From: a virus
Lineage: Duplodnaviria; Caudoviricetes
Direction: 5' to 3' (one strand)
Virus record (IMG/VR): IMGVR_UViG_3300018914_000074
DNA length: 40,743 bases
Below are positions 3,830 through 13,618 of the stretch, piece after piece. The position numbers and the translations under genes are program-made. How positions within the stretch are numbered: the first letter of the stretch is position 1; each line of letters starts with the position of its first letter. The notes under the pieces are model-generated. The model ran no database searches. It saw nothing but the letters and a program-made list of their open reading frames with translations, and was not told the DNA's origin.

Positions 3830-3939
3830 CCCGCCGCCAGCGTACATACGAGAACTTGCTGCAGCTTGCCACAATGGCGCGTAGCTGGCGGACGGAACGG
3901 GTTTATCTCAATCAAATACCATGGGAGGCATTCAAATGA
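3826..3939 (+). CDS. Small hypothetical protein (37 aa, MTRRQRTYENLL...), not in ORF track
   Basis: ATGA overlaps at both ends fill the gap exactly. Confidence 0.55.
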   Translation: MTRRQRTYENLLQLATMARSWRTERVYLNQIPWEAFK

Positions 3940-4211
3940 AAAGCACAGGAGTTGTTCGAAAGGTGGACGAGCTGGGGCGCATCGTTATCCCTATGGAGCT
4001 GCGGCGGACGCTGGGGATCGGCGAGAAAGACCCATTGGAGGTATTCGTAGACGGGGAGCGCATTGTGCTGCGGAAGTACGCTCCGGGCTGCGTCTATTGC
4101 GGGTCGGTGGATGATGGATTGAAGACGCTCTTGGACAAGCTGGTTTGTCGCAAATGTACGGAGCAGATAGCGGAGCAATTGACGACAAGCGGTAACGTAA
4201 AAAGCAAATAA
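3936..4211 (+). CDS. abrB: AbrB/Abh-family transition-state regulator
   Basis: MKSTGVVRKVDELGRIVIPMELRRTLGI signature plus C-terminal CxxC...CxxC. Confidence 0.92.
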   Translation: MKSTGVVRKVDELGRIVIPMELRRTLGIGEKDPLEVFVDGERIVLRKYAPGCVYCGSVDDGLKTLLDKLVCRKCTEQIAEQLTTSGNVKSK

Positions 4212-9254: not shown

Positions 9255-9797
9255 ATGGAAGTCGTACAGCCGATCCGGAGCGTCGAGAAGCTTGAACGGA
9301 TGAAAGCGGTGCTGCGAGAGCGATCGGAGCGCGACTGGTTCCTGCTCGTGATGGGAATTAATGTCGGCCTTCGCATCGGCGATCTTCTCAAGCTTCACGT
9401 CCGGGACGTCCGGAATAAATCGCACATCCGCATCATCGAAGGCAAGACGCAGAAGCGCAAACGGTTCCCGATCAACGCGGAGCTGCGCGAAATCATAAAT
9501 CAGTACACGAAGGGCATGAAGGATGACGCTCCGTTGTTCCCGAGCTACCGGACGAAGCAGAACATCGGAAGGGTGCAGGCGTACCGCATCCTGAACTACG
9601 CGGCGGCGGAGGTCGGTCTGATTGAGATCGGGACGCACACGCTGCGGAAGACGTTTGGGTACCATTTCTACAAGCGATACAAGGACGTCGCACTGCTGCA
9701 GGAGATATTCAATCATTCGGCGCCGTCGATTACGATGCGCTATATCGGAATCAACCAAGACATTATTGACGAGGCCGTTGGCGGCTTCCATCTGTGA
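9255..9797 (+). CDS. Short tyrosine recombinase, copy 1 (catalytic domain only)
   Basis: VQPIR, GLRIGD, KTQK, HTLRKTFGYH, FNHS, RYIG. Confidence 0.93.
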   Translation: MEVVQPIRSVEKLERMKAVLRERSERDWFLLVMGINVGLRIGDLLKLHVRDVRNKSHIRIIEGKTQKRKRFPINAELREIINQYTKGMKDDAPLFPSYRTKQNIGRVQAYRILNYAAAEVGLIEIGTHTLRKTFGYHFYKRYKDVALLQEIFNHSAPSITMRYIGINQDIIDEAVGGFHL

Positions 9798-9807
9798 GGT
9801 GAGGGAA

Positions 9808-10287
9808 TTGCCAGAAGCGAGAATTTTAGATGCCTGTTGCGGCAGCCGGATGTTCTGGTTCGACAAGCAGCATCCTGACGCGGTCTACATGGATAATCGG
9901 GAGCTCGACGATGTGCTGTGCGACGGGCGAACGCTCAACGTCAACCCTGACGTGATCGCCGATTTCCGGCGTATGCCTTTTGCGGACGAATCTTTTTATT
10001 TTGTCGTCTTCGACCCGCCGCATCTGCTGAAGGCTGGCGAAGATTCATGGTTGGCCAAGAAATACGGGAAGCTCGGGCCTGACTGGAAGGAAGACATCAA
10101 GCAGGGTTTTCAAGAATGCATGCGGGTGCTGAAGCCGAACGGGACGCTAATCTTCAAGTGGAACGAGGATCAGGTCAGCCTGGGCGAAGTTCTGAGAGCG
10201 ATCGACCGGCGACCGCTCTTCGGTAATCGGAGAAGCAAGACGCATTGGCTCGTCTACATGAAAGACGATCAGAGGAACATTGGGTGA
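9808..10287 (+). CDS. SAM-dependent (probably DNA amino-) methyltransferase
   Basis: ILDACCGSRMFWFDK, VVFDPPH, RVLKPNG; GAGGTGA SD then TTG 9808. Confidence 0.88.
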   Translation: MPEARILDACCGSRMFWFDKQHPDAVYMDNRELDDVLCDGRTLNVNPDVIADFRRMPFADESFYFVVFDPPHLLKAGEDSWLAKKYGKLGPDWKEDIKQGFQECMRVLKPNGTLIFKWNEDQVSLGEVLRAIDRRPLFGNRRSKTHWLVYMKDDQRNIG

Positions 10288-10315
10288 ATATGGAAGGACA
10301 TGGGGAGGGGTATGC

Positions 10316-10633
10316 ATGAACGTTTACGAAATCGGTCCGTACTGGATCGCGGCCAAGTCTGCGGACCATGCTCTCGGGGTTTACGTTGAAGAAACTCACG
10401 AACTTTCGGATTTGGTCATTGGTGAACCCGGCGAAGGGGAAACCGAGGAAGTGACGATATCGATTCGGCAGCTCACTCGAAACCAGGTGGAATCGCCATC
10501 GGTGTACTGCTGCGAAGACGGCGGATGCTCTTTCTGTAAAGACGAGGAGGATGCAGTCCTCATCTCATATCAGGACCTCATCAATAAGCGTGAGGAGAGA
10601 GAATTCCCTTGCGTCATCGCCAAAGAAGAATGA
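10316..10633 (+). CDS. Acidic hypothetical protein with Cys cluster
   Basis: GGGAGGGG SD; CCEDGGCSFC. Confidence 0.65.
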   Translation: MNVYEIGPYWIAAKSADHALGVYVEETHELSDLVIGEPGEGETEEVTISIRQLTRNQVESPSVYCCEDGGCSFCKDEEDAVLISYQDLINKREEREFPCVIAKEE

Positions 10634-10659
10634 ACGCAGGCTGAATATTGTGATACAAA

Positions 10660-10692
10660 GCAAAAACCGCAGGGAACGGCACTCCCCACGGT
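10660..10692 (-). terminator. Intrinsic terminator
   Basis: CCGTGGGGAG-TGCCG-TTCCCTGCGG followed by TTTTTG on minus strand. Confidence 0.7.
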
Positions 10693-11105
10693 CTCTGCCC
10701 CACGTTTGTTTACCTCAACAACCTTGCAGCGAATGGGCCTGAAGAAAGCCGCCGAATATTGGAGCCGTTGGTGTATCGGCCAAGTGACCCGCGTAACTTT
10801 TGAGGTTATCCATCGCACTGAGCGTGCCGTGCCCAGCTTCTTGGGATCGGCCATGACTTAAGCAGCTGTGGCACTGCTATGTTTTGATTCCCCTCATTGC
10901 CCATGGCAGCCGGGTCGCTACTGAGTTCCCTATGTACTGATGGCCGTTTTACGCTCGTCAGCGGAAGGAAGGCGTGGAACCTTCGGTAAAACTTTGCCGC
11001 CTATTTCAGGGATTGTTCAGCCGCGATAGTCCTTCTCAGAGGAACAAGGGGAGAATATAAAGTCGGCTATAAAGATTAACATCCGACCAACTCCTTCCCC
11101 CCTCT
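10660..11105 (-). ncRNA. Candidate large structured ncRNA (family not assigned)
   Basis: No convincing gene in a ~560-bp gap; many stems; intrinsic terminator on minus strand. Confidence 0.55.
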
Positions 11106-11198
11106 TATCGAGGGATACAAGTAAATACGGTCCATCTAAGTAAGAGTTTCACTATCTGAAAGGAAATTCACAATAATATGGCAACGGGAGGAAGAGCT

Positions 11199-11705
11199 GT
11201 GGAGATAACAGAGCTTTACGAAATGCAAAAGGCGCTCGACGCGCGGATTATCGAGGAGAAGGGGCTGCAGGGTCAAGACCTGCTGCCGAACACCGTCCTC
11301 GCCCTGCAGGTCGAGATTGCTGAGCTGGCGAACGAATGGCGTGGCTTTAAACACTGGAGCAACGATAAGGCACCAAGGATCGAGAAAATGCTCGAAGAAT
11401 ACGTGGATTGTCTACACTTCTTTCTCTCGATTGCGCGGCAATTGGGCGTTCCACTATATCAACTGGATATAAATCACCAAGAGATCAAGGAAGACACGAT
11501 CAAAATCTTCATCGATATCATCACGGCAGTCGGCCTGATCGATTACGTTGATTATTCGAACCTCGACGACAACGCTTTTTGGGATGCTTTGGACCAATTT
11601 ATCGCACTTGGTACCCAGCGACTGGGGTTCACTTGGAAGCAGATCGAAGCTGCCTACCTAGCGAAGAACGCAGTGAACCACGACCGGCAGGCGACCGGAT
11701 ACTGA
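11199..11705 (+). CDS. dut: Dimeric (all-alpha) dUTPase
   Basis: Q..LD.RI, EIAELANEWRGFKHWS, LEEYVDCLHF, AY..KN.VNH.RQ..GY. Confidence 0.9.
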   Translation: MEITELYEMQKALDARIIEEKGLQGQDLLPNTVLALQVEIAELANEWRGFKHWSNDKAPRIEKMLEEYVDCLHFFLSIARQLGVPLYQLDINHQEIKEDTIKIFIDIITAVGLIDYVDYSNLDDNAFWDALDQFIALGTQRLGFTWKQIEAAYLAKNAVNHDRQATGY

Positions 11706-11724: not shown

Positions 11725-12267
11725 GTGAATTATGTTCAACCGATCCGCGATCCGGAGCTCATCACCGACATCAAGAAGTATCTGCGGGAGACGAACGAGC
11801 GAAATTACATCCTGTTCGTCCTTGGCATAAACACGGGCCTCCGGATCTCCGACATCTTGAAGCTCCGCGTGAAGGACGTCAGGGGAACGCACATCAGCAT
11901 GCGGGAGACGAAGACAGGGAAGCAGAAGCGTATCCTGATCAATCCGACGCTGAAGAACGAGCTCAAGGGCTACATAGAGGGCAAGGACGGCGACGAATAC
12001 CTCATCAAGAGCCGCCAGGGCTACAACAAGCCGATCAGCCGCGAAATGGCCTACAAGCTCCTCAACCAAGCCGCCAAGGTCTTCGGCCTCGAAGAGATCG
12101 GCACCCACACCATGAGAAAGACCTTCGGTTACCACCACTATCTGAAATACAAAAACATCGCGCTGCTGATGGACATCTTCAACCACTCCTCCGAACGAAT
12201 CACGCTGCGGTATATCGGCGTTAACCAGGACACGATGGACAACACGTTGAGCCGTTTTAGCCTTTAA
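11725..12267 (+). CDS. Short tyrosine recombinase, copy 2 (catalytic domain only)
   Basis: VQPIRD, GLRISD, KTGK, HTMRKTFGYH, FNHS, RYIG. Confidence 0.93.
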   Translation: MNYVQPIRDPELITDIKKYLRETNERNYILFVLGINTGLRISDILKLRVKDVRGTHISMRETKTGKQKRILINPTLKNELKGYIEGKDGDEYLIKSRQGYNKPISREMAYKLLNQAAKVFGLEEIGTHTMRKTFGYHHYLKYKNIALLMDIFNHSSERITLRYIGVNQDTMDNTLSRFSL

Positions 12268-12409: not shown

Positions 12410-13618
12410 CTGGACGAAACCCAAAGACGAAAAGTGTTTCAGCGGGCCAAATCGATGACGACCGAGCGGTTTTGGAGCTGGATGAACTGGCTGCATACCA
12501 GGGCATACGACTTGTCAGGAAGTCATCACCTCGAGGCAATTCGAGAGCATCCATTGGGCGGGGAGCAGATGGCTAAGGAAATCGCCGAAATGGTTGATAC
12601 GGTCCGCGAGAGAACTGGCTTGAAGACGATCACGATCGGAGATACGGAGGACGTAGAATTTCAAACTGTCATGGGAGGGAGAACCGTGGGAACCCCAGTA
12701 CCGAACAGAGCCAATGAGGAGAAGTCCGTAGCTGCTGGACCAGTGACGACGTATAAGCTGCCACCGGAGGAACTCGAGAAGCTGCGCACCGGAACGCAAC
12801 TGACGGAAAGAAGGCCGATCCACACGAGTCCCGACGGCGGCCGAAGCGAACGGAGTAGGCTGATCGAAAACCAAACCAAGAACGAGGTGGACGATATGAG
12901 ACCTAAGAAGACGGGTCCCGATTGCGGACTGACGAAGCGAATTTTCCTAGAGCAGATTGCTGCCGGCGAAACCGTATCGAGCATCGAGCGGGCATGGAAC
13001 ATGAAGAATCAGACGCTGCCGTATTGGGTCAAGGTGTGGGGGCTGAAGGGCGTGACACCGGGTAAGGCGCGCGAGTTGCTGCAGTCGATGCCGGATGAAC
13101 ATGCGCCACCACAGCCCGTCGTTGTAACGGCGGAACAAACGTCTGACATTGTGCACCATGGTCCGACGCCCGATCCGCAGCCGATCGGCGCGCATGTCGG
13201 AGATCCAGCTGAGCCAACGCCGTTAGTGGTCGCCGCGGGCTTGACGGCCATCGATTCGACGATCTCGACGATACTTAACAACGTTGAATGGTTCGAGGCA
13301 GAGCATACAGTGGTCGGACCTTCGGTAAGCCTAAACAGCCGCGGGATGTCGTTCGATGAGGAAGCGACCAGGCAAATGGCGCTGAAAGCGAACGAGCTGC
13401 TGATGATCGGCGCGGCCCCGGGAAAGTTGGTTTTCCAGAAAGGACGAGGGCTGAAGCTTAGAGGCGTCGGTGAATCGACGGTTCGTCTTGAGAACCGGCG
13501 GATCGGGAGCTGGCAGCCGTTCAAGGCGATCGCGAAGAAGCGATATCCGCTGAAATACGATGCGGCGAGCGGGGCGTACTACATCGAGGTCGAGGTGACA
13601 GAACATGCGCGAAATTAA
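12410..13618 (+). CDS. Multi-domain hypothetical protein (probable CTG start; ORF track GTG 12434)
   Basis: GGAGGTGA SD 6 nt before in-frame CTG; internal SD+start signals suggest fused modules. Confidence 0.6.
   Translation: MDETQRRKVFQRAKSMTTERFWSWMNWLHTRAYDLSGSHHLEAIREHPLGGEQMAKEIAEMVDTVRERTGLKTITIGDTEDVEFQTVMGGRTVGTPVPNRANEEKSVAAGPVTTYKLPPEELEKLRTGTQLTERRPIHTSPDGGRSERSRLIENQTKNEVDDMRPKKTGPDCGLTKRIFLEQIAAGETVSSIERAWNMKNQTLPYWVKVWGLKGVTPGKARELLQSMPDEHAPPQPVVVTAEQTSDIVHHGPTPDPQPIGAHVGDPAEPTPLVVAAGLTAIDSTISTILNNVEWFEAEHTVVGPSVSLNSRGMSFDEEATRQMALKANELLMIGAAPGKLVFQKGRGLKLRGVGESTVRLENRRIGSWQPFKAIAKKRYPLKYDAASGAYYIEVEVTEHARN

Follow-up and report, generated by a model that had tools for sequence, protein, structure and literature searches.

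The DNA analysed here (hereafter the window; 40,743 nucleotides) is the prophage of a temperate tailed phage that encodes an integrase and a repressor as well as replication, head, tail and lysis proteins, residing in a 5.95-Mb genome whose host we infer to be a Paenibacillales-like member of the Bacilli. Within its plus-strand early operon, a gene-free gap separates a 117-aa ORF (10280–10633) from the dUTPase gene. It measures 544–565 bp, with the dUTPase starting at an ATG at 11178 or a GTG near 11199, in agreement with the original prediction, made from the sequence alone, of a gap of ~560 bp in a gene-dense operon. That prediction had placed a large, structured minus-strand RNA in the gap, which it could not assign to a family and likened to GOLLD and ROOL. 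The gene at this position is an expanded copy of a known orphan RNA family, FuFi-1, which lies on the minus strand, antisense to the early operon and 8 kb from the genetic switch.

According to the ORF list and domain searches, the neighbouring genes encode a methyltransferase, an ORF without assignment, dUTPase and small recombinases. The latter are two paralogous 180-aa tyrosine recombinases, 51% identical and consisting of the catalytic domain only (9255–9797 and 11725–12267, plus strand), which bracket a block composed of the methyltransferase, the FuFi-1 RNA and dUTPase; at the homologous locus L228, one such recombinase is found ~850 nt from the FuFi-1 RNA. Neither a bracketing inverted repeat nor a target-site duplication was found at the FuFi-1 locus in the window, and the window contains no tRNA genes. 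The early region also holds a 394-aa ORF without PHROG or Pfam match (12434–13618, plus strand), and the early operon encodes an AbrB/MazE-fold protein (3921–4211, plus strand), next to which no toxin gene was recognised.

The assignment is based on a match to the Rfam family FuFi-1 (RF02986) at 10661–10907 of the minus strand, which scores 83.4 bits against a cut-off of 59.6, covers all model positions (1–175) and carries a ~65-nt insertion, the P5 expansion, relative to the model. It is the only Rfam match above cut-off in the whole window; neither GOLLD nor ROOL was matched. We therefore regard membership in the FuFi-1 family as nearly certain, and the comparison with GOLLD and ROOL fails, as does the statement that no family could be assigned, because the RNA is FuFi-1. 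Like other members, the RNA lies outside 5' UTRs and has no associated protein, shows covariation in P1/P2 and in the three-way junction (10 Bacilli-type sequences; P1 types in 28 sequences), and ends in a Rho-independent terminator. The loops of P4 and of the terminator, complementary in the Rfam consensus letters, can form 7 bp in the window. FuFi-1 was described as a conserved motif with a 3' terminator that is rarely found in 5' UTRs (Weinberg et al. 2017, PMC5737381). The passages of that paper devoted to it mention ribozyme- or riboswitch-like properties, state that self-cleavage was not seen, and single it out, as of 2017, as a widespread RNA whose function is likely sophisticated. Among about 8.4 million papers covered by a full-text search, no other names FuFi-1, and searches for later work on its sister motifs yielded nothing usable.

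Judged from its homologues, the complete RNA is predicted to be ~460 nt long (~11118 to 10661, minus strand), as opposed to the 175 nt of the FuFi-1 model. The features of the locus are as follows, in the direction of its transcription.

11146–11151, minus strand: −35 box TGAAAC of a predicted ECF (sigma-W-type) promoter (motif; recurs in L003, L229, L228, L242 and L234)
11126–11129, minus strand: predicted −10 box CGTA, 16 nt past the −35 box (motif; start site placed near 11118–11120)
10661–11118, minus strand: predicted full-length FuFi-1 RNA (Rfam match, homologue alignment, folding, promoter position)
11095–11114, minus strand: 5' hairpin with arm a, CCCTC (11110–11114), and arm b, a G-tract (11095–11104) (pairing tests, stepwise folding)
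11091–11096, minus strand: Shine-Dalgarno sequence AAGGAG, 8 nt 5' of the ATG (homologue comparison)
11062–11087, minus strand: start-codon hairpin, GTCGG (11083–11087) with CCGAC (11062–11066) (duplex test, folding)
11017–11082, minus strand: micro-ORF of 21 codons, MLIFIADFIFSPCSSEKDYRG (in-frame starts in homologues)
11044–11055, minus strand: C-tract c inside the micro-ORF, with b or d as partner (pairing tests)
10908–11043, minus strand: variable domain with hairpins, including a recurrent hairpin-UAAAAC module at 10946–10963 (alignment)
10850–10907, minus strand: P1 (10901–10907/10850–10856) and P2 (10874–10878/10861–10865) (Rfam model, covariation)
10889–10897, minus strand: G-tract d in the P1 loop (pairing tests)
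10719–10849, minus strand: three-way junction P3/P4/P5 with linkers AGAA and CUGCA and a P5 expansion of ~65 nt (Rfam model, alignment, covariation)
10824–10830, minus strand: P4 loop ACGGCAC, which kisses the terminator loop GTGCCGT (10676–10682) (pairing and covariation tests)
10705–10714, minus strand: single-stranded conserved motif GGTAAACAAA (Rfam model, alignment)
10661–10695, minus strand: intrinsic terminator hairpin and U tract (Rfam model, terminator call, covariation)

Pattern and DNA searches for homologues yielded 106 loci with a FuFi-1 core, which form 28 clusters at 95%. From 26 of these clusters, after L096 and L113 had been dropped as truncated or leaderless, and with the addition of L003, L229, L211, L266 and L274, we assembled 31 representatives in two groups: 11 Bacilli-type sequences including the window, and 20 to which we refer as Clostridia-type, a label for gut viral contigs that is not taxonomic. 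Individual tests omitted 1–4 rows whose anchors failed, so that n differs between tests. The L234 copy, at the end of a contig, is incomplete, and the candidate L276 was dropped as a coding sequence. The precision of the pattern searches varied, FuFi-1 accounting for 2 of 83, 2 of 11, 3 of 22 distinct and 4 of 8 loci in different searches. RF02986 was matched in 2 of 151 related genomes, the window DNA in none of 11 other genomes of the family, and BLASTN searches with the window region, L228 and L141 returned no match among annotated phages. An exact-pattern scan of genome contigs gave two chance matches and missed G084, a carrier of the pattern, so absence in that scan is uninformative. Estimated full lengths range from ~295 to 475 nt, placing the window copy among the longest. 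In L113, recombination between b and d, two tracts that resemble each other, appears to have removed the whole leader and joined the 5' hairpin directly to the P1 loop.

None of 100 shuffles folds as well as the minus strand from 11118 to 10657 (z −2.68); this compares with z −0.87 for the plus strand and z −1.69 for the narrower span of the original prediction (10655–11110). In the core, 79% of 447 cells are paired over 45 named pairs in 10 Bacilli-type sequences, against 67% after shuffling and 32–47% when the pairing is slid as a control; these values somewhat favour the structure, since it was drawn from the window and the Rfam model. P4 aligned poorly (55%). Across the same sequences, 30 of the 45 pairs are altered on both sides, the kissing loop included. 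The kissing helix between the P4 and terminator loops comprises 4–10 bp in all 28 rows printed, at −11.8 kcal/mol for cognate and −5.8 kcal/mol for permuted loops (n=30), and 26 of 28 rows show an extra 2-bp contact beside P1, the two exceptions being misregistrations by the script.

The original interpretation is supported in part: the RNA is a structured, self-contained large antisense unit of a temperate phage, with a covarying core, a promoter motif of its own and the minus-strand intrinsic terminator that had been called. Its 5' start probably lies ~15 nt upstream of 11105, the limit originally proposed. The individual stems that had been listed fared unevenly. AGCAG/CTGCT is the invariant P2 of FuFi-1; the inner hairpins GAAGG/CCTTC and CGCT/AGCG are changed but still paired in L228, L243 and L215 (by eye), with two of four pairs of the latter altered on both sides; and CTCAG/CTGAG plausibly closes the variable domain, where different sequences form a stem in L003 and L266 (by eye). 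By contrast, TTGTTC/GAACAA, CCTCA/TGAGG and the enclosing stem GTTTTAC/GTAAAAC, whose 5' arm is not conserved, are present in the window but gain no support from the homologue alignments. Two further stems, GCCG-CCCA/TGGG-CGGC and GCAC/GTGC, are contradicted, being incompatible with the covarying stems P3 and P4 and with the kissing loop. Within the variable domain, a tetraloop hairpin followed by UAAA(A)C occurs in the window (10946–10963) and in L228, L004, L013, L020, L048 and L051, sometimes twice; the TAAA(A)C string is present in 15 of 29 representatives, a count made without a chance control. It echoes the GGUAAAC of the core and is possibly a repeated protein-binding module.

Upstream of the model, the homologues have in common a 5' hairpin, a Shine-Dalgarno sequence and a start codon. 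All 27 homologues that could be anchored (29 examined) start in frame, with ATG, TTG or GTG, and have 0–5 extra codons between this start and the conserved block; in the partial copy L234, the ATG is out of frame. The encoded peptides are 12–36 aa long with unrelated C-termini. Changes in the conserved codons are mostly non-synonymous, and codon 5 is TTG in 27 of 30 sequences and never a synonym, so that the constraint looks like one on RNA pairing and initiation and not on the peptide. The GTCGG/CCGAC pairing, one of the stems originally listed, emerges as a conserved start-codon hairpin in the duplex test (p=0.0001, 30 sequences), although a column test on eight sequences gave it no support; it can be extended over the Shine-Dalgarno sequence via U-rich codons. 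An additional pairing of codons 2–5 with the 3' single-stranded motif was not adopted, being weak and inconsistent (p=0.007 and 0.21). We are fairly confident that this leader is part of the FuFi-1 RNA. The term ncRNA used in the original prediction does not fit entirely, as the RNA includes a conserved ribosome site and micro-ORF.

The promoter motif (11151–11126, minus strand) ends 11 nt 5' of the 5' hairpin, the right distance from the 5' end for TGAAAC-N16-CGTA of the sigma-W type. Both elements, TGAAAC and CGTA, are linked in PMC5758882 to sigma-W, which responds to envelope stress and has some basal activity. GAAAC-N16-CGTA is found upstream of 5 of 11 Bacilli-type and 0 of 18 Clostridia-type rows printed, and also in L234, with unrelated spacers and a background of 4.8e-6 per position; these amount to ~4 independent observations, as L228 was found by a promoter-containing pattern and L003 and L229 are close kin. 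Other FuFi-1 copies have sigma-A-like −10 boxes (by eye). The host encodes a SigW-like gene, which at 241.3 bits falls just below the cut-off of 243.1, and its genome contains TGAAAC-N16-CGTA 13 times, compared with 3–11 times at other spacings, a slight enrichment at most. No such motif was found directly upstream of the sigW-like gene, which abuts the preceding gene; one copy lies between the sigW-like gene and the next gene, anti-sigma-like by eye (G000:C26, ~10719, minus strand). A literature search on sigma-W induction by phage returned nothing usable. From these motifs, we consider ECF-driven transcription of the FuFi-1 gene in the window probable. An A/T-rich stretch, TTTCAC...TTCACAATAAT (11145–11177), overlaps the promoter and has weak matches in three other genomes of the order, at L231, L233 and L235 (E 0.0007–0.006); it is possibly a regulator site, a divergent dUTPase promoter or a chance resemblance.

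Four tracts of the RNA offer alternative partners: a and b are the arms of the 5' hairpin, c is the C-tract of the micro-ORF and d the G-tract of the P1 loop, with c complementary to both b and d, and b pairing with a as well. Duplex permutation within groups gave p=0.003 (n=11) and 0.002 (n=19) for b:c, and p=0.013 and 0.005 for c:d. The controls a:c and b:d were not significant within groups, nor was a:d in the Bacilli group, and the test for a:b is circular, its windows having been picked by pairing. These duplex p-values overstate independence, because the three sequence classes of the tracts are explained by only two events on the tree. In anchored columns, b:c is paired in 86 of 100 cases versus 63 when permuted (p=0.037 and 0.006 within groups), and c:d is not significant within groups (p=0.38 and 0.13); MAFFT columns of eight sequences show no excess for b:c and the start hairpin (479 of 500 shuffles as high). 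The b:c pairing was not recovered in L266 and L274, where the script windows are possibly misplaced, and compensations in single sequences are seen in L214, L011, L013 and L234. Stepwise folding of the 5' end of the window proceeds from a:b to a long b:c hairpin in which the Shine-Dalgarno sequence is covered too; the cost of enforcing a:b within the first 85 nt, ~3 kcal/mol, is smaller than what the c:d duplex provides (−13). On these comparisons and folds, the c:d pairing is likely real, and the chances of a true two-state switch in the leader are about even.

The homologues differ in their genomic placement. Clostridia-type copies adjoin cI/Cro. Among the Bacilli-type copies, the one in the window occupies the early region, those of L228, L141 and L229 precede HNH-terminase or methyltransferase genes, and those of L272 and L274, near position 4000, sit backwards inside the head-gene operon, far from regulatory regions. 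Eight of the 11 Bacilli-type copies are antisense to both flanks (window, L229, L228, L215, L214, L141, L272 and L274), with L003, L242 and L243 being ambiguous. No partner protein recurs around nine Bacilli-type loci, except for one small recombinase in two of them, and the adjacent cognate nuclease expected of a type III or AbiF-like RNA antitoxin was not found. The lack of a recurrent partner makes an RNA antitoxin encoded next to its toxin less plausible, and a self-contained mobile unit more so.

Our tentative model, to which we assign somewhat less than even chances, is that of an expanded FuFi-1 gene, inserted backwards in the early operon and driven by a sigma-W-type promoter, whose leader would stabilise and switch a trans-acting core. 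During transcription, a:b would yield to the long b:c leader hairpin, in which the Shine-Dalgarno sequence would be paired to the U-rich codons and the ribosome site closed. Once the core is finished, its G-tract d would capture c, restoring a:b and opening the ribosome site. An initiating ribosome could then shield the 5' end from RNase J1, and a ribosome on codons 10–13 (6–9 in most homologues) would strip c from d; the act of translation would count, the peptide would not. Initiating ribosomes block RNase J1 in B. subtilis, where 5'-end protection is established for hbs, according to the relevant part of PMC5737220. In the most speculative step, the core, its 3' end sealed by the kissing loop, would bind a host or invader protein, conceivably as a decoy or ligand in a lysogen under envelope stress. 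Taken to its full extent, this would make FuFi-1 a ribosome-gated two-state device, whose micro-ORF senses host translation and flips a pseudoknot arming the trans-acting core, and which in this lineage is wired to an envelope-stress sigma factor as a protein-free defence or counter-defence; we consider this extended version unlikely as a whole.

Several other explanations have to be weighed against this model. The leader could be a static 5' stabiliser of hairpin and ribosome site with a fixed c:d pseudoknot, b:c arising incidentally from G/C tracts: homopolymer runs allow pairing in many registers, the MAFFT columns show no b:c excess, and the events on the tree are few. Yet b follows c across all three sequence classes, which a:b and c:d alone would not couple, and the single-sequence compensations speak against it as well, leaving this reading doubtful. 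The RNA might also act in cis, if head-on transcription under stress, or base-pairing to the lytic mRNA, dampened the lytic operon and stabilised lysogeny. This we think unlikely: although most Bacilli-type copies are antisense to both flanks and Clostridia-type copies adjoin cI/cro, interference needs neither invariant loop bases nor a conserved tertiary fold, positions range from the switch to the head operon, and a search of window and genome revealed no further antisense target. The orientation itself says little, as it may only reflect that a terminator in sense would break the operon, requiring such a unit to be inverted to survive.

We attach still less weight to a type I toxin-like mRNA, in which the peptide is the effector, folds block premature translation and the lytic transcript serves as antisense antidote in a stress-triggered abortive defence. 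Metastable hairpins and long-range Shine-Dalgarno pairings resemble those described for type I toxin mRNAs in parts of PMC6733600, Pro8 is encoded by all four codons, and FuFi-1 copies lie antisense within lytic operons. However, no conserved hydrophobic toxin peptide is found; the peptides vary as described above, codon 5 lacks synonymous variation, the most conserved part lies outside the ORF, and a membrane-spanning helix is not apparent by eye. Comparably improbable is a catalytic or ligand-sensing RNA that needs the 5' leader missing from the 175-nt motif. The invariant junction bases, the two pseudoknots and the remarks of its discoverers on ribozyme- or riboswitch-like properties would fit, but self-cleavage is not reported for FuFi-1 in the pertinent passages of PMC5737381, which do not give the construct ends, and there is no downstream gene to regulate. 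Finally, a 94-codon ORF (10570–10854, minus strand) overlaps the core and could be taken for a decayed gene. Its ATG/GTG opens only 6–16 codons in 8 of 10 homologues, it has no PHROG match, and this reading fails because no reading frame is maintained through the core among 11 sequences; together with the strong core covariation, this renders a decayed gene or chance structure extremely improbable.

If the true gene indeed spans 300–475 nt and includes leader-core pairings, assays of the 175-nt motif may have overlooked what the RNA does. For testing, the competition between b:c and c:d supplies exact compensatory mutations, and the predicted sigma-W-type promoter in part of the Bacilli lineage would be the first hint of an inducing condition for FuFi-1, as well as a means of switching the RNA on in a tractable host. 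Together, promoter and competing leader pairings render the function of FuFi-1 more testable.

With GOLLD and ROOL, the RNA shares a large, multi-domain architecture and a Bacillota prophage setting, while differing in that it matches neither family in Rfam and that the window has no tRNA genes. The DUF3800-I, drum and skipping-rope motifs, as portrayed in parts of PMC5737381, are likewise complex conserved RNAs ending in an intrinsic terminator, but they are associated with a nearby protein, whereas the only recurring neighbours of FuFi-1 are cI/Cro. The leader resembles 5'-stabilised Bacillus mRNAs such as hbs, which in the passages of PMC5737220 concerned have a strong Shine-Dalgarno sequence near the 5' end and a possible ribosome block to RNase J1; here, however, a tiny, non-conserved ORF precedes what is apparently the payload, the downstream RNA fold. 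Type I toxin mRNAs such as aapA3 (parts of PMC6733600) also combine alternative hairpins with long-range pairings at the ribosome site; FuFi-1 differs from them in that neither a conserved toxin peptide nor a dedicated antisense gene was seen. The closest comparison remains that with the FuFi-1 family itself, with which the RNA shares P1, P2, the three-way junction, GGUAAACAAA, the 3' terminator and its orphan status. Compared with the family model, it is expanded to ~460 nt by the enlarged P5 and by a 5' part of ~210 nt comprising leader, micro-ORF and variable domain, and it combines candidate leader-core pairings and a predicted sigma-W-type promoter with a position 8 kb from the genetic switch.
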